Position numbers and translations under genes: made by a program | The notes under the pieces: generated by a model | Databases searched by the model: none | What the model was told of the DNA's origin: nothing | Seen by the model: the letters and a program-made list of their open reading frames with translations, nothing else | NCBI GenBank assembly: GCA_963668035.1 | Contig: OY764073.1 | Span: 3,138,930 to 3,202,929 of the forward strand | DNA length: 64,000 nt | Reading direction: 5' to 3' | Source: Candidatus Poribacteria bacterium | GTDB taxonomy: Bacteria > Poribacteria > WGA-4E > WGA-3G | Part shown: positions 1,583-53,659 of the stretch, in pieces | How positions within the stretch are numbered: the first letter of the stretch is position 1 | Layout: each line of letters begins with the position of its first letter

Positions 1583-3720
1583 GCCGAGTGAATGGGATTC
1601 GTCCCCGGGGCAAGGGCTTCAGGCACTACCTCGTAGTGTGAAAATTCCAATGTAAACGCGCCCCGTCCTTGCGTCATTGAACGGAGATGAGTTGTGTATT
1701 GAAAGGTCTCTGACAATGGGATAAAGGCGTTGACAACATTCTGTGTGAATTGCGATGCGCGCCCTATATCGGCGGTATCTTGCGTCGTGCTCTCGTTAAT
1801 TTGGGCGCGGCGTGAATTTAGATCGCCGATCACCTTGCCGACATGTTCATCAGGAACAGTAATATGTATCTGCATAATCGGCTCTAAGAGCAAAGGGTTC
1901 GCTTTTCTGACCGCGTTTTCAAATGCGAGGGATGCTGCCGCTTCAAACGCTACTTCCGAGGAATCCGTGGCGTGATAGGAGCCACCCGCGAGTGTTACCT
2001 TCACATCCTGCATCGGATAGCCGATGCGGGGCCCTGTTCCCATCGCACCTTCCAACGCCTTCTCAATACAGGGGATATAGTGCCGCGGAATCTGTGTCTC
2101 GTCGGTGTTATCTTCAAACTGAAATCCGTCGTTGCGTTCTAACGGTTCAACCGTGAGCAGCACATCGCCGTAGATGCCTTCTTCGTCGGTTTTATGGATA
2201 TGTGTGCCGCGCGCCTCCGCTACGGTGCTGATAGTCTCGCGATATGCCACTTGGAGTTTGCTCACCCGCGCGTTAACCCCAAATTCACGGACCATTCTGT
2301 CGGTCAAAATCTCCAAATGCAGCTCGCCCATCCCGGAGATAATGCGCTGTCCGGTCTCTTTATCGATCCCGACAGTAAAGGTCGGGTCTTCGTCCATCAA
2401 TTTTTCGAGGGTCTCCTCTAATGCATCCGCATCGCTTGCCCGCTCAGGCTCTATCGCAATAGAGATAACTGGATCCGGGAACGTGATAGATTCTAACAGA
2501 ATTGGTGCTTTTGCATCCGTCACGGTATCCCCGGTTTTGGTATCCTTCAACCCAACGAGTGCGACAATATCACCCGCGTAAGCCGCATCGGACACCGCCT
2601 CTTTATTGGCGTGCATCTGCAAAATCCGATTGACACGCTCTCTTTTCTCGGCACGGACGTTATAGATTGCCGCCCCGCGCCGAAGCGTGCCGGAATAGAC
2701 GCGGCAATAGACGAGTTTGTCTACTGTAGGGTGGCTTGCGACTTTAAATGCCAACGCTGAAAAGGGGGCAGTATCGTCAGCGGGACGCGTTATTTTGGCT
2801 TCCGCATCGGTTTTGGCAGGCGCCCTGTTAGAAGTCGGCTGGGGTGCAGTTCCTTCAATGGGCGGCACATCAATAGGCGATGGCAAAAAATCGATGACTG
2901 CATCAAGCAGCGGCTGAACGCCCTGATTCTTCAAAGAACTCCCACACAGCACCGGCACCAATGTGCCGCTGAGTGTCGCTGTGCGCAGAGTCGTTAATAA
3001 TTCGTCCTGCGTAATTTCTTCGCCGTTCAAGTATTTCTCAAGCAGTATCTCGTCTTCAACGGCGACATTCTCAAAAAGGGTTTCCCGTGCTTGATTGACT
3101 TCATCCTGAAATTCCGCTGGAATCTCCGTCTCTGAATAGGTCTGTCCTTGGTCTGCTGCGTCCCAATGCATCGCCTTTTGTGTTACCAGATCGATAACGC
3201 CGGCAAAGTCCGTCCCTTCACCGATCGGCAATTGGAGGGGCAGTGGGTTCGCGCCTAACCGTTCTTTCATCATCTCCAGAACGCGTGCGAAATTCGCGCC
3301 GACCCTATCCATCTTATTGACAAAAACAATGCGTGGGACACTGTAGCGTTCCGCCTGATGCCAGACGGTTTCTGACTGGGGTTCCACGCCACCGACGGCA
3401 CAGAATAGTGCAATTGCCCCATCCAGGACCCGCAGGGAACGCTCTACCTCTACTGTGAAATCGACATGTCCGGGTGTATCAATGAGGTGAATTGCGTGTT
3501 CACGCCAGAAACAGGTTGTTGCGGCAGCAGTAATTGTCACGCCGCGTTCGCGTTCTTGCACCATCCAATCCATTTCAGCGGTGCCATCATCTACCGCACC
3601 GATCTTATGTTTTTTGCCGGTGTAGAAAAGGATGCGTTCCGTTGTCGTGGTTTTGCCTGCATCAATGTGCGCTGCAATGCCGATATTGCGCACATTTTCA
3701 ATCGAATATTCGCGTGCCAT
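1579..3720 (-). CDS. fusA: Elongation factor G paralog (EF-G/EF-G2-like translational GTPase).
   Basis: Starts [35 protein letters not shown] and carries DTPGHVDF and NKMD G-motifs with the full five-domain length. The start was set at the internal ATG (3720), not the ORF-track N-extension. It is not embedded in a str operon. Confidence 0.9.
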
Positions 3721-4729
3721 CTTTTTCCTTCGGAGTGTCGTTCCACTGAAGAACAACACCGAGTAAACCGGGGTTCCATTCCATGAGCAGTTGATATGCC
3801 TTCGGTGCCTCTTCGCCGGGAACACGGTGACTAATCAGCGGCGCAACGTTGAATCGCTTTTCTGCGATAAGGGATAACAGCAATAGACTGTCATCTTCAA
3901 GCGTCCAGTAGTTGGGTGAGGATTCTTGGAGCGGGCGGATAGCGTTATGCGCCCCGTAAAGGATAAGTCCTTTTTTATGCACATCCCGATAGAAGTTCAC
4001 CTTCGGTGTTTCGCCGCGTGTGCTCGCCAACAGCACCACGCGGGCACCCCAGCCTGCTACATCTAAGGCAGTGCTAATTCCGTCCGGATGTCCCGTCGCC
4101 TCAATCACAACAGCTGGTCCATCGCCTCTTGTAGCATCCCTTAACTGCTCAGAGAAATTAGCATCTTCTGGGTTGAAGGTATCATCTGCGCCCATGCTTT
4201 TAGAGATTTCGAGGCGACTATCGGTAAGGTCTGCGGCGATAAGTGGCGTTGCGCCACTGAGTTTTGAGAGTTGCATCGCCAATAAACCGATGAGTCCTTG
4301 TCCCAAAACCAGTGTGGCTTCTCCGAGTTCAATGCGCGCCTTTCGGACCCCTTGTAATGCGATCGCGCCGAGATTAAAAAAGACTGCTTCTTCGGCGGGA
4401 ACATCAGTCGATGGTACTTTAAGCAAACGATTCGGAGCGGTTACAAAATGACTGGTGTGTCCGTGTGTTGAAGCGACGCGTTCACCTACTTGACAGTTCG
4501 TAACCGCTTTCCCGCTTGCTATCACTGTGCCGATGTTGCTGTACCCCGGACGGGATGGATATCGTCCTTGTGCATTTGGGAGTCCTAATAAAAACGCGCG
4601 TTCCGTGCCGGGACTGATAAGCGTACAGTCTGTAGCGACGAGGACTTCATCGTCTCCGATAGGGGGTAATGTAAATGTCTCAATATCGACGTTGGCGCGA
4701 CTCGGCCAAACAACGCGTTGGGCTTTCAT
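3698..4729 (-). CDS. Medium-chain dehydrogenase/reductase family oxidoreductase (zinc-type alcohol dehydrogenase-like; the canonical Zn ligands are not obvious).
   Basis: Rossmann motif [13 protein letters not shown] and an MDR-like N-terminal catalytic domain. It overlaps the fusA start by 23 nt. Confidence 0.65.
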
Positions 4730-4828
4730 GAAAATCGAACCTTATTAATAGTGGATAATTGTTTTTCGGCAGTATAGCATAAAGCCAACTATCCGTCAAG
4801 TGTTAATCCGCGAATGGCACAGTGCTAA

Positions 4829-6439
4829 CTACCGATCAGAGGTCCGAACATTTAGGGTAATATAGTCCCCGCCGCGTCCATCTGGCAATCTGACATAAAG
4901 GAGTATACGGCTTTTGTTTTCCGCTTTCAGTTGCTCGGCGACGCGGGCATAAGCCTTAGCGTCGTCAATCGGCATCCATTCCATTTCTTGGATGAGGTAT
5001 CCGGGTTTGATACCTTCTTTCTCTGCGTTACTGCCGCGTTCAACCTCGGTGACGACAACGCCTTTCTCTTCAGGAGAATGACCGTAACGTTCAGCAAGTT
5101 CAGGAGTCAAGTTTTGGACGTGGATCCCTGCCAACGCTCCTTGGTGTTCCTCTTGGCGTTCGCCTTCAAGTGCCGCGAGGGTTTCCGCTGTGCGTCTCCC
5201 CAATTTAACAGTCAACCGTTTTTCATCGTCTCCCTTTCGGAGAACTGTCACCTCAACAGATGTGCCGACGACTGTCGCGCCGACAATATGCCGTAGGTGA
5301 TTCAAGTCTCGGACTTGCTGCCCATCAAAGGTGAGGATGACATCGCCGCGTTGGATGCCTGCTTTTTCGGCAGGACTTTTCATACCGACGACTTTAACGA
5401 GGACTCCCCGGGGCTGGTCAAGGTTCAGTTTCTCCGCCAACTCAGTACTAACTTCACCCATACTAATGCCGAGCCAACCGCGTTCCACCTTACCGTTTTC
5501 TATCAGTTGTGGCAAAATCTGCTTTGCCATGTTACTCGGAATAGCAAAACTGATTCCGATATTCCCCATCGTAGCGCCGCTGGTAGCAATAAAAGTATTA
5601 ATGCCGACTAATTCGCCCCGAATGTTAATCAGCGCACCGCCGCTATTGCCTCGGTTAATCGGTGCGTCGGTTTGTATGAACTGGCCATAAGCCGTAAATC
5701 CGATTCTGTCCTTCGCGCTCACAATGCCGCGCGTCACAGTTTGTGAGTAATTCAGTGGCGTGCCGATAGCGATAACCCACTCGCCAACTTCAAGCACATC
5801 GGAATCGCCGAACCGCAGGGTTGGAAGATTATCGGCATCAATTTTAATAACTGCCAAATCGCTGCCCCCGACATCACTGCCTGCATCATCACGTCCGATT
5901 AACTCGGCTGTATACTCTTCACCGTCCGCTAAAGTGACCTTAATCTCGTCAGCACGCTCGATAACATGATTATTCGTAAGAATATAACCATCTTCACTGA
6001 TAATTACTCCAGACCCGATACCTGTGGTGGGCTCTGGATTCGGATTGCGCTCGCGCGGGAGAGATTCCCAAAAGCGTCTAAACAATTCTTCTTCCTCAGG
6101 TGTGAGCTGATCTCTACGGAAAAAAGGGGCAAAAGGATTGTCTCCCTCGGGTATCGGCAGCACTCTTCGTGTTGTTACAGTTCTTCTCGGTTTTGCTTCT
6201 GTCGTAATTTGCACGACAGCGGGACGCGTACGCGCGACCAAATCGATAAACGCTCGATTGGCACGTGCCAAGTGCTGAAAATCTTCCGAGTTTTCAAGTG
6301 TTTCGTCCGTTTGCCCGATTGCTGTCTGTACCCTGAACTCATCAGTATCCCAACTGATGACGATCCCTGCTACGACGACAAATGCTGCTAAGATTAATAG
6401 GAGCCTTATCGGGTGGCGAAGTGTGTTTCTGAATTTCAT
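4829..6439 (-). CDS. htrA: Periplasmic serine endoprotease HtrA/DegP (trypsin-like domain plus two PDZ domains).
   Basis: Motifs TNNHVI and GNSGGAL(I/V)N mark a catalytic triad context, with PDZ-like C-terminal repeats. The start was set at ATG 6439 (MKFRNTLRHPIRLLLILAAF signal/TM), preceded by GGAGG. Confidence 0.9.
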   Translation of the reverse strand: MKFRNTLRHPIRLLLILAAFVVVAGIVISWDTDEFRVQTAIGQTDETLENSEDFQHLARANRAFIDLVARTRPAVVQITTEAKPRRTVTTRRVLPIPEGDNPFAPFFRRDQLTPEEEELFRRFWESLPRERNPNPEPTTGIGSGVIISEDGYILTNNHVIERADEIKVTLADGEEYTAELIGRDDAGSDVGGSDLAVIKIDADNLPTLRFGDSDVLEVGEWVIAIGTPLNYSQTVTRGIVSAKDRIGFTAYGQFIQTDAPINRGNSGGALINIRGELVGINTFIATSGATMGNIGISFAIPSNMAKQILPQLIENGKVERGWLGISMGEVSTELAEKLNLDQPRGVLVKVVGMKSPAEKAGIQRGDVILTFDGQQVRDLNHLRHIVGATVVGTSVEVTVLRKGDDEKRLTVKLGRRTAETLAALEGERQEEHQGALAGIHVQNLTPELAERYGHSPEEKGVVVTEVERGSNAEKEGIKPGYLIQEMEWMPIDDAKAYARVAEQLKAENKSRILLYVRLPDGRGGDYITLNVRTSDR

Positions 6440-7104: not shown

Positions 7105-7267
7105 AATCTTAGATTTATCAAAACCGTACGAAAATAACGCATATATAGTATTTTGGTTAACAGTTTAATTCATTTTAGCATATCATTCAAGTTTTTATAT
7201 TGATAAAAAGATAACATGCACTGAAACGGAAGTCAAGTGAAAAGGAAAGCTGGATTCTGATAATGTC

Positions 7268-7296
7268 TTGACTTGTAAACTCTATTTTGATATACT
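7268..7296 (+). promoter_or_regulatory. Putative sigma70 promoter TTGACT-17-TATACT upstream of the sugar-phosphate isomerase gene.
   Basis: ttgact (7268-7273), a 17-nt spacer, then tatact (7291-7296). RBS AAGGAG lies at 7323-7328. Confidence 0.4.
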
Positions 7297-7333
7297 ATCC
7301 GAAAATAGCATGAGCCAATAATAAGGAGTCATT

Positions 7334-10657: not shown

Positions 10658-11653
10658 ATGACGCAATTTCGACATGCAACCATCACAGGCACAGGTTCCT
10701 ACCTCCCTGAGCGAGTTGTTACCAACTTTGATCTTGAGAAAATGGTGGATACGAGTGACGAATGGATTCGTCAACGCACGGGCATTACTGAACGCCGCAT
10801 CGCTGAAGACGATGTCGCTACATCGGATCTTTGTGTCCATGCCGCACGCTGGGCAATTAAAAATGCGAATATTGACCCACTTGACATCGAGCTGATTCTC
10901 GTCGCTACGGTGACACCTGACACGTTTTTCCCGTCAACAGCGTGTTATGTCCAGAAAGGCATCGGCGCGAAGAATGCCGCTGCAATGGATTTATCCGCTG
11001 CATGTGCCGGGTTCCTTTATGGCTTAGACTTAGCGGATGGCATGATTAAATCCGGACGCTATAATACCGTTCTCGTCATTGGCGGTGAAGTTTTTAACAA
11101 CATCGTTGATTGGGAAGATAGAAGTACATGTGTCCTCTTTGGAGATGGCGCGGGGGCAGCTATCGTTGAAGCCACAGATGAACCGAAAGGGATCCTTGCC
11201 TCCTATATCGGGTCGGATGGCGATTATGCGGATATTGATCTGCTCGGCATTCCCGCAGGGGGCTCCAGAATGCCGATTACCGCAGAAGCGATCCATCAAA
11301 AAAGAGACAAACTTCAGATGAACGGTCGCGAAGTCTTTAAACTCGGGGTACGACTGATGCCCGAAGCTGCGCAACGCGTGCTAAATCAGGCAGATGTCCG
11401 TATTGAGGATATCGATCTGTTGATCCCACATCAAGCAAATTTGCGTATTATTGAGGCAGTCGGCGACAGACTCGGCGTACCGCGAGAGAAGGTCTATATT
11501 AATGTTGATAGATACGGGAATACCTCCGCAGCAACAGTGATTATCGCTTTGGATGAGGCAATTCGCGAAGGTCGTGCAAAGCCGGGCGATCTGCTTCTGT
11601 TTGTGACTTTTGGCGCGGGTTTAACATGGGGAAGCACACTCCTACGCTTATGA
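10658..11653 (+). CDS. fabH: 3-oxoacyl-ACP synthase III.
   Basis: ITGTGSYLPERVVTN and active-site context AAC(A)GF, with a typical ~330 aa length. Confidence 0.95.
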   Translation: MTQFRHATITGTGSYLPERVVTNFDLEKMVDTSDEWIRQRTGITERRIAEDDVATSDLCVHAARWAIKNANIDPLDIELILVATVTPDTFFPSTACYVQKGIGAKNAAAMDLSAACAGFLYGLDLADGMIKSGRYNTVLVIGGEVFNNIVDWEDRSTCVLFGDGAGAAIVEATDEPKGILASYIGSDGDYADIDLLGIPAGGSRMPITAEAIHQKRDKLQMNGREVFKLGVRLMPEAAQRVLNQADVRIEDIDLLIPHQANLRIIEAVGDRLGVPREKVYINVDRYGNTSAATVIIALDEAIREGRAKPGDLLLFVTFGAGLTWGSTLLRL

Positions 11654-13655: not shown

Positions 13656-13827
13656 ATTAATGAATGGTTGTCGGTTATCGATTGTCAGTTTTCAGTTAAG
13701 AAACTTTGAGGTAAGAATTCACCTTGCCCTGGAGTACTGTAAAGTGGGGTAGATTGTTACAGAGAAACCTCTGACCGATAACCGATAACTGATAACTAAT
13801 AACCCCTAAAAAAAAAGGATCGGTCTC
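13656..13827 (+). repeat. Intergenic inverted-repeat element, copy A. Heptad-repeat arms (TCAGTTA/GATAACC-like) flank a ~70-nt spacer; the 3' end is AACCCCTAAAAAAAAA.
   Basis: Left arm ggttgtcggttatcgattgtcagttttcagttaag, right arm ctgaccgataaccgataactgataactaataacc. It lies between acpP and fabF. Confidence 0.75.
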
Positions 13828-23323: not shown

Positions 23324-23490
23324 AGTAGTTATCAGTTATCAGTCGTCAGTTTTCAGTTAAGAGGTTCGTGATTGACTCACATATTCTTCTGTAACCGTTG
23401 TCCCTCGATTAAGGGAACAACAATTACTAAAGACGAGTCATTAATCAAAAAATCAGACTGATAACCGATGACTGACAACCCTAAAAAAAT
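23324..23490 (+). repeat. Intergenic inverted-repeat element, copy B.
   Basis: Left arm gtagttatcagttatcagtcgtcagttttcagttaagagg, right arm cagactgataaccgatgactgacaaccctaaaaaaat. It lies between proS and sucD. Confidence 0.75.
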
Positions 23491-24363
23491 ATGAGCATAC
23501 TCGTAAACAAAAACACAAAAGTAATAGTTCAAGGCATTACCGGGCGTTCTGGACGCTTTCATACGGAGCAGTGCGCGGCTTACGGCACCCAAATTGTCGC
23601 AGGCGCGGTGCCTGGTAGAGGCGGATCTGATGTAAACGGGATCCCCGTATATGATACCGTGGCAGAAGGCGTTACAGCAACTGGCGCGGATACATCGCTG
23701 ATTTTCGTGCCGGCACGCTTCAATGCAGCCGACTCCGTGATGGAGGCTGCGAATGCTGGTGTCAAACTTATCGTCTGTATCTCCGAACATATACCTGTGC
23801 TTGACATGGTGAAAGCGAAGGCGTTCCTGAAAGGAAAACCTACCCGATTAATCGGTCCGAACTGCCCTGGGGTGATCACACCCGGCGAATGCAAAATCGG
23901 TGTGATGCCGGAATTTGCGTATGCACCCGGCAACGTTGGCATCGTTTCCCGAAGTGGTACGCTCACTTATGAAGCCGCCTATCAACTGAAACGGCTCGGC
24001 ATCGGGCAGTCTACCTGTGTCGGTATCGGTGGCGACCCCGTGATCGGGACAAACTTCGTTGATGTTCTCAAACTTTTCGAGGCGGATGCCGATACGCACG
24101 CCATTGTTTTAATCGGTGAGATCGGCGGAACAGCTGAAGAAACGGCTGCGCAGTTCGTGAAAAATGAAATGACGAAGCCGGTTGTCGGATTTATCGCTGG
24201 ACAGACAGCACCGCCGGGCAAACGAATGGGGCACGCGGGTGCAATTATCTCCGGTGGACAAGGCACCGCTGCAGGTAAAATTCAGGCTCTCAAGGATGCG
24301 GGGATCACCGTCGCAGATAGCCTCGCTACTATTGGGGAAACTGTGGCATCGGTTTTAACCTAA
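23491..24363 (+). CDS. sucD: Succinate--CoA ligase alpha subunit.
   Basis: [14 protein letters not shown] CoA-binding motif and the phospho-His loop SGTLTYE...MGHAGAI. Confidence 0.95.
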
Positions 24364-33524: not shown

Positions 33525-33714
33525 GAGTAGCTCCTTATGTAGTTATCAGTTTTCAGTTATCAGTTATCAGTCTGGTTTTTGATTCACCAATACCTTTTCG
33601 CACGCTTGTTACGTTTATGGGTAACAACGGTTACCAAGGGATCGTCAAGCATTAGAAACCTCTTAACCGAAAACTGAAAGGTTTTTCGCAGAAAACCGAA
33701 CTGACGACTGACAA
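33525..33714 (-). repeat. Intergenic inverted-repeat element, copy C, in the same orientation relative to transcription as A and B.
   Basis: On the minus strand it reads ttgtcagtcgtcagttcggtttt...cagttttcggttaagagg ... cagactgataactgataactgaaaactgataactac. It lies between hisI and trpE. Confidence 0.75.
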
Positions 33715-34092
33715 CTATTTTCCCTCTGCTTCAAAAACCTTATCGCTTATAACACGCGTTGACTCGCCGTCGGGGGAGACTTCCCGAAAAAAGCAGGAGC
33801 GGTAGCCGACATGGCACGCTGCGACCTTCTGCTCGACTTTGATGAGGAGGGCATCACCGTCACAATCCACTGCGACGGACTCAACTGTCTGTGTATGCCC
33901 TGAAGTCTCCCCCTTAATCCACAGTTTTTGGCGGGAGCGACTCCAGAAGCAGACGCGTCCTGTCGTCAGCGTGTGCGTTATCGCTTCGGCGTTCATATAA
34001 CCGACCATCAGCACTTCGTTGTTGGTGCGATCCTGAATCACTGCGGCGACCAAGCCATCACGGTCATATTTGAGTTCGGATAGAATTTTCAT
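33715..34092 (-). CDS. hisI: Phosphoribosyl-AMP cyclohydrolase.
   Basis: LVAAVIQD, MVGYMN and CDGDALL(I) motifs, 125 aa. Confidence 0.9.
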   Translation of the reverse strand: MKILSELKYDRDGLVAAVIQDRTNNEVLMVGYMNAEAITHTLTTGRVCFWSRSRQKLWIKGETSGHTQTVESVAVDCDGDALLIKVEQKVAACHVGYRSCFFREVSPDGESTRVISDKVFEAEGK

Positions 34093-36348: not shown

Positions 36349-36636
36349 AAAAAATAATTCCTCTCTTTCAATACCTTTGAGATATGATAGAGATGTTTCT
36401 GCATTTTTCACAGAAATTGAGTTGACACTCATAAGAATCGCCATTTTTGGGCAAAAGTATTGAACTTTAGATGTTAATATTCTGACATTTATCAAAGTTA
36501 TGTTCACACTACTAACGGCGTTGCCTCAGAGCGTGTAGTGTTATGAAAATGCGTTTTGTTTTCAAAAAGTTGCTTGATTTTTAAAGCATGAAATGGCATC
36601 CTAAGAGGTATTAACATCCTTGAGGGAGGACATCTC

Positions 36637-37795
36637 ATGCGAGAACATCTTATCAGATCAGCGAAGTTTTTTCAATCTGTTTTGTATGCGAACTTTCGGG
36701 ACATGACACCCGAACTTTCTGAAACCTTGCTTGGACTTTCAACGGGACATCTCTTTGGACTGGACAATCCGAATCAAGTCGCAGATGCTTTAGAGGTTTC
36801 GAAGAATAAACTCTATAGAGACCTCAAAGCGATGAGTCTTTATCAGTGGAAGTCTCTGTTAGTGGGTATCGTCTCTATGATCGCTATTGAAGCGATCCGT
36901 GAGACGGAAGCGAAGTCGGCCGCGACACAATCTCGGCGTTGTATCACGCTAAGTGTTGATGACACCAATGATCCTCGGTAGGTCCAAGACGCTCTCTTAT
37001 CGCTATAACTGGTGGTCAACACAGCAGAAGAACGCTATCAAAGGTCGAAACATATTAGCCATCACCATCAAGATCGGCGATGTCATTCTCCCGCTGAACA
37101 TCCGTATCGTCTCTAAACAAGGCAGAGGCAACACGGATAAACCATCGTGCTTTCGGACGATGCTCCAAGAAGTGCTTGATGTCTTTGATGCCGAAGGGAT
37201 TGATCTGAGAAAGTATCCGATCACTTTTGATTCTTGGTATGGCAGCAAAGCACTTGTTGAGGCGTTAGATGAGTTCGGATTTGCCTGCGTCCTTGTCCAC
37301 GGTAAAAGCAACTCTGTCATGGAGATTGAGGGTCAGAGCAGCAAACTTTCAGAACACAAGAAAACCGTCAAGTTGCTGACGGATCAATGGGGATGTGATA
37401 AACCCGTGCGGCGACTGCCCGCGAAGAGCCCGACTTTCGGCGAACTGGTGCTGCTCTTTTTTTCAGCAGAGAGCAAAACGCAAACGATGATGGTCTTTGG
37501 CAGACCTGGACGCTCGGCGGAAATCCTGCATATCTGGTCGCAACACCATGGCATAGAACAGTTTTGGCGACATCTGAAAACCGATCTCCGACTTTCAGCT
37601 ATGAGTTTGCATCACCGAAACGGTGCTTATGGGTCCTTAGGGATAAAGGTTCTCAGTTATCTCATGATCCAGCAGGTGATTCGCTCAGCACGCCTCACTT
37701 TTCATCAGATAAAACTTCAACTTTCGGGCGATAGACAGATGCTGTCTATCATCAAGACGCATTTTCATCAACGAAGCACACAAGAACACCTATAA
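36637..37795 (+). pseudogene. IS4-superfamily DDE transposase (DDE_Tnp_1-like), split by a frameshift near 36960-36980; an IS remnant or inactive IS copy.
   Basis: Two overlapping ORFs in adjacent frames (36637..36981 and 36953..37795). A VDDT motif at the end of ORF1 continues as ...GKTLSYRYNWW in ORF2. There is no slippery heptamer, and the terminal inverted repeats are not clearly definable. Confidence 0.65.
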
Positions 37796-38469: not shown

Positions 38470-38648
38470 TGAATAAATTAACGGTTCAGGTGCCGGAGAG
38501 AGCCGGAGAATAGGGAAGCGCGGTGAGAATCCGCCACGGCCCCGCCACTGTGAACGATTGCAAATACCCACTGAAAAAACCACTGTCAATTAATTGATGG
38601 GAAGGTTCAGCGGACGCAAGATCGGAAGTCAGGAGACCTGCCTGGATC
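38470..38648 (+). ncRNA. Cobalamin (AdoCbl/B12) riboswitch aptamer.
   Basis: It matches the conserved core recalled from memory: ...AATAGGGAAGCGCGGTGAGAATCCGCCACGGCCCCGCCACTGTGAACG... the B12-box GCCACTG ...GGGAAGG... GAAGTCAGGAGACCTGCC. Confidence 0.8.
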
Positions 38649-38786
38649 GTGTTTCACACTTATGCTTTCGCGGGAAAGCAGCGGAACAGCGCACAGCAGT
38701 ATCCTGTTAGAAGCCGTAGGGGCGGGGTTTCCCCGCCTGATAAATCACGCAATTGCAGGATTAACATTATACAAATGTCGCCTTGT

Positions 38787-38824
38787 CCCCTGCCTTTTCT
38801 ATGAAAGCAGGGGTTTCTTGTTTC
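38787..38824 (+). terminator. Intrinsic terminator (riboswitch expression platform): stem CCCCTGC/GCAGGGG followed by TTTCTTGTTT.
   Basis: Hairpin cccctgc-c-ttttctatgaaa-gcagggg, then a U-rich tract. RBS GGAGG and ATG 38840 lie downstream. A second GC-rich hairpin (aggggcggggtttccccgcct, 38718-38739) could be an alternative structure. Confidence 0.6.
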
Positions 38825-38839
38825 ATTACGGAGGTTTTA

Positions 38840-40123
38840 ATGAACAATACTTTTTTTTCTCGGCGGCATTCCTCAGGCACGCTTCTGCTTTCGCTGGTAA
38901 GTGCGCTCATCTTCACGTTCCTCGTCAGTCCTACTTTTGGACAAACAGATGTCCAAAATCTCGCCGTTATTATCAATGCTTTGGATAAAGACGACTTGAA
39001 CATCACCTCAACACTCTCGCTTATAGATCTCGATGAACCAAATGCGAAACGCGCTGTCGACCATGAAATACTGACAATCGGTGATGTCCCGAATGGGCTG
39101 CTGATTCACGGACACCTCGCTTACATCTGCCGTTTCGATTGGATTTCCGGGGATCTCAGCGACAGCGTTTTAATCGTTAATCTGGAACAGCGGACAATTA
39201 TTGGTCATATCCCGATTGCCCCCGGTGCGTATCCGCAAAGTCTCGCGCTGGTTAGTCCAAACAAAATGTACGTTACGTGCGATAACGTTCATGAGGTACA
39301 CGTCATTGACATCCCGAGCCGCAGTGTAACGAAAATCATCACGGATTCGTCCTTCAACAAAACGACCGGTATTACGCTGCTTAACGGCAAGGCGTACGTG
39401 ACGAATCCTGCTTGGGAGTGGGATGCAGCAACGGGCAAATCTGTCTATCACGATAGCAGCGTCACGGTGATTGATACCGAGACAGATACCGTTCTAAAAT
39501 CCATCCGGATGCCTATAAATGCAGGTGGGATCCTCAACGATGGCGAATCTACTGTGATTGTCCGGACGACAGGCGATTACAATCTGGTTTCCGGGAACAT
39601 TGTCCTCATTGATGCGACTACCGATGAAATTATCAAAACGGTTGATCTCAAGACGACACCCGGCGCGTTTGCAATCAATTCACAGAAACAGCTCTTTATT
39701 CAGAGTGGCTGGCAGAATCCGGGTTTGCTGATCTACGATGTGCCGACCCAAAAGTGGATTCGAGATAAGAAGAGTGCGCTCGCCGAATTCGCCGGAGGTG
39801 CCGGGATGACTTTCGGACCAGACGGGAATCTCTACATCACCAAACCCGACTGGACCGGTGGTGGACTCTCTACTGTTCTTGTCATGGCACCAGATGAAAC
39901 CCTGATCAAGACCTACCAAGCCGGACACGGGACCGACAACATCGGTATTGTCCAAATTGTGCCGCGCCGCGAGGATGTCAATGATGATGGATTTGTCAAT
40001 TTCGAAGACCTAACCATCGCGAGCCGATTCCTCGGAAGTTACGGACCCGGCATAATCGCCGATGTCAATAGCGACGAAGTCGTTAATGTGCTTGACCTCG
40101 TGCTGATCGCACAGGAATTTTAG
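38840..40123 (+). CDS. Secreted YVTN/YncE-type beta-propeller protein with a C-terminal type-I dockerin repeat pair.
   Basis: Signal peptide MNNTFFSRRHSSGTLLLSLVSALIFTFLVSPTFGQ and repeated blade motifs (YVT, D..T.(K/T).I). Dockerin DVNDDGFVNFEDLTIASRFLG...DVNSDEVVNVLDLVLIAQ. It is the first gene after the riboswitch. Confidence 0.7.
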   Translation: MNNTFFSRRHSSGTLLLSLVSALIFTFLVSPTFGQTDVQNLAVIINALDKDDLNITSTLSLIDLDEPNAKRAVDHEILTIGDVPNGLLIHGHLAYICRFDWISGDLSDSVLIVNLEQRTIIGHIPIAPGAYPQSLALVSPNKMYVTCDNVHEVHVIDIPSRSVTKIITDSSFNKTTGITLLNGKAYVTNPAWEWDAATGKSVYHDSSVTVIDTETDTVLKSIRMPINAGGILNDGESTVIVRTTGDYNLVSGNIVLIDATTDEIIKTVDLKTTPGAFAINSQKQLFIQSGWQNPGLLIYDVPTQKWIRDKKSALAEFAGGAGMTFGPDGNLYITKPDWTGGGLSTVLVMAPDETLIKTYQAGHGTDNIGIVQIVPRREDVNDDGFVNFEDLTIASRFLGSYGPGIIADVNSDEVVNVLDLVLIAQEF

Positions 40124-52672: not shown

Positions 52673-53629
52673 ATGGAGGGCGGATATACGGGAAGGCACG
52701 TCAATATCCAAACCTGCCTCACCGAACCGCAAGGTATAATTAAAAAAACGGAACAGCGAAACCTGAATTCTACCGACATTGACCTGAAATCAACAGCAGA
52801 GATCGTTCGGATTTTTCACGAGGAAGATCAAAAAGCGGTAGCAGCAGTAGCGGCAGAATCCGATGCAATTGCATACGCGATTGACCTGTGCGTCGCTGCG
52901 TTTCGCGAGGGCGGCAGATTATTCTATGTAGGTGCAGGAACGAGCGGTAGGCTTGGTGTGTTAGATGCCTCGGAATGTCCGCCAACCTTCAGTACGCCCC
53001 CTGAAATGGTGCAGGGAATTATTGCTGGGGGTGATGTCGCCTTGCGTCGCTCCGTGGAGGGTGAAGAAGATAAACCTGAACGCGGCGCGCACGCTATCCG
53101 AGAACGGCAACTGACACCGAAGGACGTGCTTGTCGGGATCGCAAGTAGTGGACAGACACCTTATGTTATAGGGGCTTTGAAGGCAGCACATGCTATCGGG
53201 GCAACAACGATGTTTCTCTGTTGTGTCCCACCGCCTGAGCAGCTAAAGGAGTGTGTAACGCATTTTATCACACCGATCGTCGGTCCCGAAATCATCACTG
53301 GTTCAACCCGATTGAAGGCAGGCACTGCCACAAAACTGGTGCTGAACATGCTCACGACCGTTTCTATGATAAAACTCGGTAAGGTCTATAACAATCTGAT
53401 GGTAGATGTGAATGCCTCTAACACGAAATTGGTCGCGCGGAGCGTTCGGATTGTTCAAGCCGTCACAGGTGTAGACACTGCAACCGCCGAAGCAGCTTTA
53501 GCACAAGCGGATGGACGAGCGAAACTCGCTATTGTGATGCTCACAAAAGGATTGAACCCGACAGATGCAGACGCGCTATTGGAAAAACATGCAGGATTTC
53601 TAAGGCAGATTCTTGAAACTGACAGCTGA
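52673..53629 (+). CDS. murQ: N-acetylmuramic acid 6-phosphate etherase.
   Basis: SIS-domain motifs GAGTSGRLGVLDASECPPTF and GSTRLKAGTATKLVLNMLTT. The exact start is uncertain. Confidence 0.85.
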   Translation: MEGGYTGRHVNIQTCLTEPQGIIKKTEQRNLNSTDIDLKSTAEIVRIFHEEDQKAVAAVAAESDAIAYAIDLCVAAFREGGRLFYVGAGTSGRLGVLDASECPPTFSTPPEMVQGIIAGGDVALRRSVEGEEDKPERGAHAIRERQLTPKDVLVGIASSGQTPYVIGALKAAHAIGATTMFLCCVPPPEQLKECVTHFITPIVGPEIITGSTRLKAGTATKLVLNMLTTVSMIKLGKVYNNLMVDVNASNTKLVARSVRIVQAVTGVDTATAEAALAQADGRAKLAIVMLTKGLNPTDADALLEKHAGFLRQILETDS

Positions 53630-53659
53630 ATAACCGATAACGATAAAAAAGGAGAACCC

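Follow-up and report, generated by a model that had tools for sequence, protein, structure and literature searches.

A palindromic element lies between acpP and fabF in a 64,000-nt stretch of a Candidatus Poribacteria genome (contig OY764073.1, the whole stretch being referred to here as the window), and related elements occupy two further spacers of the same stretch. Our results indicate that these three copies, A to C, belong to a non-coding, interspersed family of DNA repeats, palindromic and mosaic in structure, that extends across the phylum Candidatus Poribacteria and is probably selfish or near-neutral rather than a dedicated regulatory RNA. Among the options offered by a first-pass annotation of the window, REP/MITE-like selfish elements are the best supported, because of the high copy number (about 250 per genome), the inverted termini, the gain and loss at orthologous sites, the common modules combined as mosaics, and the lack of any bias of strand, orientation, or spacer class. 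On our best reading, the family is apparently undescribed, resembles repetitive extragenic palindromic (REP) sequences, bacterial interspersed mosaic elements (BIMEs), and miniature inverted-repeat transposable elements (MITEs), and is built from TAACTGA-type heptads. We found no paper that describes these elements in Poribacteria, which are uncultivated sponge symbionts known solely from metagenome-assembled genomes (MAGs) and single-cell genomes.

Three copies and a solitary array in the window

The elements and their parts are as follows, in window positions.

13663-13804, plus strand: copy A, in the acpP–fabF spacer
13666-13693: copy A left arm, heptads GGTTGTC GGTTATC GATTGTC AGTTTTC
13694-13701: copy A core, AGTTAAGA
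13711-13760: copy A centre, a nested quasi-palindrome GTAAGAATT...GATTGTTAC
13771-13804: copy A right arm, CTGACC followed by heptads GATAACC GATAACT GATAACT AATAACC
23325-23482, plus strand: copy B, in the proS–sucD spacer
23326-23354: copy B left arm, TAGTTATC followed by heptads AGTTATC AGTCGTC AGTTTTC
23355-23364: copy B core, AGTTAAGAGG; the centre contains GTAACCGTTGT
23454-23480: copy B right arm, CAGACT followed by heptads GATAACC GATGACT GACAACC, then CTAAAAAAAT, with the ATG at 23491
33540-33717, minus strand: copy C, in the hisI–trpE spacer, genes and core both on the minus strand; in minus-strand order TAGTTGTCAGTCGTCAG, a nested mini-hairpin TTCGGTTTTCTGCGAAAAACCTTTCAG (plus-strand positions about 33674-33703), the core TTTTCGGTTAAGAGG (33661-33676), the centre, and CAGACTGATAACTGATAACTGAAAACTGATAACTA
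53618-53647, plus strand: a solitary, degenerate array of the right-arm type, ACTGACA GCTGAAT AACCGAT AACGATA

The core CAGTTTTCRGTTAAGA has three exact matches in the window (A and B on the plus strand, C on the minus strand) against about 0.05 expected, plus one match with two mismatches. The right-arm motif GATAACYGATRAC, at up to one mismatch, has 11 matches against a shuffled expectation of 0.23, with nine of these inside copies A to C and one in the fragment before a DUF362 gene. In a strict scan for tandem RGTNNWC units, arrays of at least three units appeared only in copies B and C, while copy A showed two units on the left and three on the right. All three copies also fold into long stem-loops, as had been proposed: their hairpins reach -47 to -50 kcal/mol and are more stable than shuffled controls (z = -3.5, -5.6, and -2.8 for A, B, and C), and their consensus fold has a common 18-bp outer stem.

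The first-pass annotation had the essentials right, with motif counts far above chance: three copies at the places it named, each with inverted RGTT(A/G)TC heptad arms around a variable centre. Pfam likewise agrees with its flanking gene names, acpP–fabF, proS–sucD, and hisI–trpE, and places the solitary array between a SIS-domain gene and the DUF362 gene, where a right-arm fragment had been reported (53620-53650) and one GATAACYGATRAC match lies. Its limits were too wide, as it gave whole spacers rather than the elements, whose approximate ends are those listed above. Its letters for copy A also need correction, since the core quoted as ending in AAGAGG reads AGTTAAGAAAC and the right arm starts with CTGACCGATAAC rather than CAGACTGATAAC. 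The A-run that it set directly against the start codon does abut it in copy B, but lies 18 nt upstream of the GTG in copy A. In copy C, the hisI stop codon doubles as the terminal TAG (33715-33717). The solitary array, which is without a partner arm, similarly overlaps the stop of the SIS-domain gene and stands directly 5' of AAAAAGGAG-N6-ATG of the DUF362 gene.

Distribution and abundance

The first-pass annotation had allowed that the motif might be confined to the window. It clearly is not: matches extend across species-representative genomes, as revealed by a scan of a 596-Gb collection holding one genome per GTDB species, with TCAGTTTTCRGTTAAGA as the query. At least 116 stretches were matched by this core scan, and 90 of them are Candidatus Poribacteria MAGs. 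By our own arithmetic, about 140 chance matches would be expected in the whole collection, so the signal lies in the concentration of matches in one small phylum. Among the non-poribacterial matches listed, 13 of 26 have the same design, (CAGTTTT)n-AGTTAAGA-loop-(AAAACTG)n, and these come from Acidobacteriota (Pyrinomonadaceae, Bryobacteraceae, and others), Thermoguttaceae, and Verrucomicrobiae. One hairpin of this design, in a Verrucomicrobiae MAG (L029, 2144-2160, minus strand), sits in the spacer between the 23S (2285-5131) and 5S (1911-2026) rRNA genes. In IMG/VR contigs classed as viral, one of five core matches is a heptad hairpin, and the other four are chance matches in coding sequence. 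The viral-classed hairpin (L129, 3025-3220; UViG_3300037087_000525) has the form (GTCAGTC)n-TCAGTTTTCAGTTAAGA-...-(ACTGACG)n.

We surveyed the elements with a heptad-array finder in 91 poribacterial stretches, which amount to 744 kb with the window and are 8-kb stretches rather than whole genomes (individual loci are cited by L number). Elements were delimited by heptad-array detection; delimiting them by their fold ran into coding DNA. The survey yielded 97 hairpin elements. Outside the ascertained sites, 4.6 elements occur per 100 kb, a density matched by that of the window (three in 64 kb), and extrapolation from this value gives the roughly 250 elements per 5.5-Mb genome cited above.

Anatomy of the family

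The arms are arrays of two to six heptads with the unit RGTT(A/G)TC, in which the GT..TC positions are invariant and the number of units varies. Polarity is outward and fixed, with L-type (CAGTTNT)n preceding R-type (ANAACTG)n in 61 cases and the reverse order in 2. The right arms, (GATAACT/GACAACT/GAAAACT)n, amount to (TAACTGA)n and its one-base variants. In the 61 elements whose arms both follow the strict heptad pattern, the median length is 131 nt (range 67-232 nt). The inverted arrays have a common terminus, TTAATAGTT...AACTATTAA, and a logo of 122 ends gives (T)TAAT–AGTTATCAG, for an overall form of TTAAT–AGTT...AACT–ATTAA.

Beside the centre lies the core, which is asymmetric, with AGTTAAGAGG on one arm facing CCTCTT(N)TAACT on the other across a 1-2-nt bulge; hence, each element has a definable orientation. 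The centres themselves vary and come in types that are palindromic in their own right. The type found in copy A, GTAACAAT..CTTGGAGTACTCCAAG..ATTGTTAC, is also present in L020, L047, L081, and L108, which, together with the window, are the only convincing matches to a loose regular expression that otherwise returned mostly noise. Copies B and C have the type GTAACCGTTGT, found again in L004 and L098, and a further type reads TTGTGGCAG...CTGCCACAAG. Nested within the arms, as in copy C, is a mini-hairpin, AGTACGGTTTTTCTGCGAAAAACCTTTCAG, with 34 instances in 27 variants and stem changes on both sides. Mosaicism is pronounced: non-orthologous copies have only modules of 27-55 nt in common, at 93-100% identity.

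Stability within species and turnover between them

Within the species, the window copies hardly change. Copy A differs by a few single-nucleotide polymorphisms (SNPs) in same-species contigs L117-L119 and L121, copy B is identical in L137, and copy C differs by three SNPs in L134-L136. No change of heptad number was seen at A, B, or C among these contigs, and this constancy rules out phase-variable slippage. Sites B and C were compared within the species only, as the surveyed loci hold no orthologues of proS, sucD, hisI, or trpE.

Between species, the picture is one of turnover. In four metagenomic orthologues of the acpP–fabF spacer (80-91% FabF identity), heptad arms are absent and only a GAGGG...CCCTC hairpin is present. 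A Poribacteria MAG that is syntenic with the window at 79% identity over more than 7 kb (L110) carries a different element in this spacer, with arms AGTTRTC/GAYGGCT and another centre. The same pair of genomes shows gain or loss between fabH and fabD, where the window has an overlapping stop/start, ATGA (11647-11653), and L110 has an element of about 150 nt together with a new AGGAG Shine-Dalgarno (SD) sequence (7164-7324). Likewise, L035 reads TAGcaaatATG at the site where L040 has an element of about 145 nt. Where orthologous copies are retained, they are usually 56-76% identical, against 79-93% for their flanks.

Genomic context and orientation

Co-directional, convergent, and divergent spacers hold 76, 9, and 7 elements, compared with 348, 41, and 29 gene pairs of these classes in the same loci. 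Relative to this gene-pair baseline, no spacer class is enriched in the surveyed poribacterial loci, and the equal proportions indicate that the elements are concentrated neither where terminators or 3' stabilisers would be expected nor where 5' leaders would be. A mild deficit in divergent spacers emerges only when these are weighted by their greater length. Elements lie a median of 4 nt from a neighbouring stop codon, often overlapping it at the terminal TAG, and a median of 21 nt from a neighbouring start, so that they fill the handful of bases where an insertion disrupts neither a stop codon nor a ribosome-binding site. An SD-like motif is present before 43% of the starts next to elements and before 54% of other genes.

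The three window copies had been described as lying in one orientation relative to transcription. This is true of A, B, and C but not of the family, as, in co-directional contexts, 21 elements have the core in the 5' arm and 22 have it in the 3' arm, with no bias, and the uniformity of the three is a small-sample coincidence. The strand of the core also bears no relation to local GC skew (42 of 89). In a riboflavin operon (L109; ribE, ribBA, and the next gene), a heptad element or array occupies two successive spacers, at 1885-2019 and about 3343-3371.

Tests at the RNA level

A palindromic element will form a hairpin in RNA whichever way it is oriented, and none of our tests pointed to selection on that hairpin in the transcribed strand. 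Specifically, arm mismatches compatible with G·U pairing on one strand only number 173 for the sense and 174 for the antisense strand, with no sense-strand excess. Mean minimum free energies are -38.4 kcal/mol (sense) and -38.8 kcal/mol (antisense), giving the sense strand no folding advantage (Wilcoxon p = 0.6). At variable heptad positions, the two arms of one element match at 0.684, compared with 0.693 ± 0.015 for arms taken from different elements. Covariation between arms is thus absent, and, as own arms match no better than foreign ones, their complementarity stems solely from the same heptad family being present in inverse orientation. A local exception to this family-wide strand symmetry is the acpP–fabF element of L110 (5026-5141), in which all right-arm heptads are GAYGGCT instead of GAYAACT, leaving the arms to pair by U·G wobbles, and only on the sense strand of fabF; a single variant heptad has probably spread through the array.

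Scans of A, B, and C found no terminator-like site (a GC-rich stem with a T-run) and, for promoters, nothing above chance. Rfam 15, run on the window and 18 loci at the gathering score and on copy A at E <= 10, gave no match to the elements. Its only matches elsewhere in the window and loci were to rRNA, tRNA, and a cobalamin riboswitch; the last (RF00174, 112.8 bits) lies at 38471-38659 of the window, plus strand, upstream of an open reading frame (ORF) at 38783-40123. The regulatory RNA motif or attenuation site that the first-pass annotation had also put forward is accordingly not supported, nor is a terminator, for want of a G·U excess, covariation, terminator or promoter sites, and an Rfam match, and given that orthologous copies usually diverge faster than their flanks. 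The hairpin appears instead to be a by-product of the DNA design and not a selected RNA structure.

A model of spread and what weighs against it

One scenario in keeping with these patterns is that elements insert, or expand, where the few bases that separate a stop codon from the following ribosome-binding site can tolerate them. A candidate mechanism would be a trans-acting transposase or recombinase that recognises heptad arrays, aided by slippage and by recombination between copies, and the inserted element would then be remodelled rapidly through the gain and loss of modules. A transcript running through the palindrome would form a long hairpin in either orientation, so that the stop before it and the start after it are again close to each other. 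Such folding-out, which is predicted from structure, may leave the insert close to neutral in mRNA and is probably what makes insertions tolerable inside the acpP–fabF, proS–sucD, and hisI–trpE operons. It would also be the likely reason why insertions of about 150 nt are apparently tolerated between tight or overlapping genes, such as fabH and fabD.

The search for a mobilising gene covered the surveyed DNA. No transposase adjoins the elements in the window or in L109, the RAYT (Y1 HUH transposase) gene that typically lies between REP sequences not having been specifically searched for. A transposase bracketed by arrays was considered and rejected, as the sole pair of far-apart arrays in the 744 kb (in L109) encloses ribBA. 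The window does contain one insertion sequence (IS)-like unit:

36543-37768: IS-like unit with two overlapping ORFs, 36637-36981 and 36953-37795, the second encoding DDE_Tnp_1
Its inverted repeat: 16 nt, ATGAAAATGCGTTTTG/CAAGACGCATTTTCAT

A two-heptad match within this unit (37648-37661) looks like chance.

Several observations weigh against a selfish or near-neutral family. No transposase or other mobilising gene was found in the surveyed 744 kb or the window, although whole genomes were not searched, and the window IS is rejected as a parent, since the heptad termini bear no relation to its 16-nt inverted repeats. Non-orthologous copies show no full-length likeness (at most 55 nt in common), unlike those of a recently active MITE, which argues against a recently active single master copy and points to an old family in which slippage, and recombination from copy to copy, have rearranged the sequences. 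In the two empty/filled pairs (window/L110 at fabH–fabD; L035/L040), no clean target-site duplication was evident; a duplication of palindromic TA or TTAA could not be distinguished from the terminal inverted repeat (TIR). Species with a 15-25% difference in their coding DNA have short modules that are 93-100% identical, and one orthologous pair (L027 1037-1172 and L038 6705-6836), the only pair to depart from the usual pattern of elements less similar than their flanks, is 98% identical (139/142) against 85-90% in the flanking 500 nt. The pair could reflect recent exchange or local constraint, and, taken with the conserved modules, it hints at sequence constraint or exchange. In a minority of genes, heptads run up to the start codon with no SD sequence. 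The heptad is found again, with its polarity, in several phyla and resembles the start-proximal TAACTGA repeats of Beggiatoaceae (PMC4679880), a recurrence that could reflect a conserved function. To these are added two features of the survey itself: the loci were ascertained through one core variant, and genes were called with a home-made codon-usage caller whose training set was the same data and whose output was checked on the window. Together, the fixed outward polarity, the conserved modules, the recurrence in distant phyla, and the likeness to Beggiatoaceae keep a functional reading alive.

Alternative explanations

The form that such a function might take can be considered at the level of RNA or of DNA. 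One proposal, which we regard as unlikely, is post-transcriptional control, in which (TAACTGA)n arrays serve as RNA platforms for S1, a cold-shock protein, or CsrA, and a complementary upstream array masks or unmasks them to tune translation; a platform for RNA-binding proteins was earlier proposed for the TAACTGA repeats of Beggiatoaceae (PMC4679880). It draws on the fact that the array next to a start is always the forward TAACTGA, at a median of 21 nt and sometimes at 3-10 nt without an SD sequence, as in the BOGUAY genome (PMC4679880), and the lone forward array preceding the DUF362 gene agrees with it as well, as do the fixed polarity, the strong conservation of the core and short modules across species, and the same heptads in other phyla. 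However, a forward array beside the start follows automatically from a palindrome, and SD-like motifs are about as common there as elsewhere (the 43% and 54% given above). Convergent spacers, which have no start codon, hold their baseline share of elements and divergent ones are not enriched, while the sense strand has neither a G·U excess nor a folding advantage and the arms do not covary. Further, elements are missing from the orthologous spacers of close relatives, and orthologous copies outpace their flanks in divergence. The absence of a transcription-strand signature and the symmetry at the DNA level would suit another proposal, in which the arrays, or cruciforms formed by the palindromes, are bound by a nucleoid-associated protein, gyrase, IHF, or a recombinase and serve chromosome organisation or supercoiling. 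BIMEs of Escherichia coli bind gyrase and IHF, and here the invariant GT..TC heptads, arrayed in variable number, are spread evenly across intergenic classes and conserved throughout the phylum and beyond. We nevertheless consider such DNA-level sites improbable, as no candidate protein was identified, elements are gained and lost between close species with rapid turnover of content, core orientation is unrelated to GC skew, and the present data fit neutral persistence equally well.

A classical REP role, in which the hairpins act as terminators, attenuators, or stabilisers of mRNA 3' ends and set unequal mRNA levels within operons, seems very improbable. The long, stable hairpins (-47 to -50 kcal/mol) and their location right after stop codons (median 4 nt) would suit this role, and the heptad-free orthologous acpP–fabF spacers also have a hairpin. 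Yet A, B, and C contain no terminator-like site, A and B are followed by an A-run and not a U-run, convergent spacers are not enriched nor divergent ones depleted, and the elements lie inside essential operons, directly 5' of ribosome-binding sites. The hairpins may still have a passive stabilising effect. Finally, it is scarcely credible that the elements are contingency loci, switched on and off by slippage, or chance low-complexity sequence without common origin, the latter having been raised by the first-pass annotation itself. Heptad number does differ between species at orthologous sites, and heptamer tracts are, in the summary given in PMC4679880, the commonest long simple-sequence repeats of bacteria and attributed to slippage. 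Against this stand the constant heptad number among same-species contigs for A, B, and C, motif counts far above the shuffled expectation, the conservation of core, termini, and polarity, and the housekeeping nature of the flanked genes.

The CAGT-containing arrays could be the recognition sites of a conserved trans-acting system, either a new kind of transposase or recombinase that uses heptad arrays of variable number as ends or a global protein that binds RNA or single-stranded DNA. We put this forward as a minority possibility that is open to considerable doubt, including its corollary that the system would be common to, or horizontally exchanged among, Poribacteria, Acidobacteriota, Planctomycetota, Verrucomicrobiota, Beggiatoaceae, Cyanobacteria, and Bacteroidetes. 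If true, the poribacterial palindromes, the (CAGTTTT)n hairpins of Acidobacteriota, and the TAACTGA repeats of Beggiatoaceae would be three faces of one mechanism.

Other dispersed repeats and practical significance

Poribacteria carry at least two other dispersed repeats. The second is about 100 nt long and contains a GTAG-type palindrome, CGTAGGGGYTGGGTAACCCARCCCCTACG, with presence/absence at orthologous sites between species: it occurs at L027 6614-6714, where L038 is empty (1166/1167), and at L037 6035-6149 and L111 3406-3504, where L023 is empty (3747/3748). It looks like a classical GTAG-tagged REP. The third, which contains ..GTAGCCCGTAAyGTAGtGGAGGGCGG.., often followed by ..CCGCAAGGAAyAtAAAAA, is intergenic in several Poribacteria MAGs (L006, L008, L018, L031, L059 at about 3560-3640, and L099) and sometimes adjoins heptad elements.

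A repeat class found in about one spacer in 20, and within core operons, matters for assembly, binning, the calling of gene starts, and operon prediction. The heptad elements also offer markers at the level of species and strain.

Comparison with known repeat systems

The attC sites of integrons are imperfect palindromes with the consensus 5'-RYYYAAC...GTTRRRY-3' and follow each cassette ORF in a co-directional array next to intI. They were rejected as an identity for the poribacterial elements, whose polarity is the reverse (5'-..GTT...AAC..-3'), whose GTTATCA misfits GTTRRRY, and which lie among housekeeping genes, in all types of spacer. Among Cyanobacteria, the heptamers termed STRR are reportedly tandem, CAGT-containing, and dispersed between genes (Mazel, 1990), and small dispersed hairpin repeats are said to be nested within heptamer tracts (Elhai, 2008). 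The AGTACGGTTTTTCTGCGAAAAACCTTTCAG mini-hairpins nested 34 times in poribacterial heptad arms may be comparable to these nested repeats. In Nostoc PCC 7120, (TTGTCAG)n has been reported 44 times (PMC2408588), and its unit, TTGTCAG, is identical to one of ours despite the difference in phylum. Unlike the cyanobacterial tracts, those of Poribacteria form inverted pairs with a conserved core and termini.

With the REP, BIME, and REPIN sequences (Di Nocera, 2013; PMC3733652; Bertels and Rainey, 2011; PMC3116915), the elements have in common that hundreds of short, non-coding, extragenic palindromes are present per genome, also inside transcription units, with a lineage-specific consensus. In both, units pair in inverse orientation to give larger hairpins, combine as mosaics, and are present or absent between relatives. 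A REP unit, however, is an imperfect palindrome of 20-40 bp with an unpaired GTAG or CGTC tag at one end (PMC3733652). The poribacterial arms are heptad arrays instead of a single such palindrome, and their ends carry AATAG in place of the GTAG tag (A at -3 in 70% of ends; G at -2 in 22 of 122, or 18%). REP and BIME sequences lie chiefly between co-directional or convergent genes and seldom in divergent, promoter-bearing spacers, from which the poribacterial elements are not depleted, and no RAYT gene has been linked to the latter. To the bacterial MITEs (Correia/NEMIS, ERIC, RUP, and Nezha), they are similar in being non-coding, 80-230 nt long, bounded by TIRs, potentially hairpin-forming in mRNA, and inserted in spacers near genes, with empty and filled orthologous sites. 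They differ from MITEs in that the copies are not near-identical, no parent IS with matching ends was found, and the TIRs are heptad arrays of variable number.

The closest described system is that of the TAACTGA heptamer direct repeats of marine Beggiatoaceae, some Cyanobacteria, and Bacteroidetes (MacGregor, 2015; PMC4679880). Both systems use the same heptad, in arrays of two to six units that are mixed with related heptads and almost all intergenic. In both, forward arrays stop a few to about 20 nt short of starts, sometimes without an SD sequence, stops occur in all three forward frames and in none of the reverse frames, and relatives differ by indels in 7-nt steps. In Poribacteria, by contrast, the arrays are inverted pairs (61 cases) around a core and centre, making palindromes of 80-230 nt, whereas the BOGUAY genome has one inverted repeat among 170 TAACTGA sets (PMC4679880). 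Most apparently solitary forward arrays in Poribacteria prove to be 3' arms of hairpins, and that at 53618-53647 is the only BOGUAY-like case in the window. The poribacterial elements also differ in their defined termini, mosaic interior, and lack of any net orientation bias relative to genes. Poribacteria, Acidobacteriota, Planctomycetota, and Verrucomicrobiota are not among the taxa listed for TAACTGA repeats in PMC4679880. The puzzle posed by these repeats in 2015 thereby gains four phyla and a second architecture, that of inverted pairs with fixed outward polarity, and this wider range and added architecture narrow the search for a common factor that binds or mobilises them.

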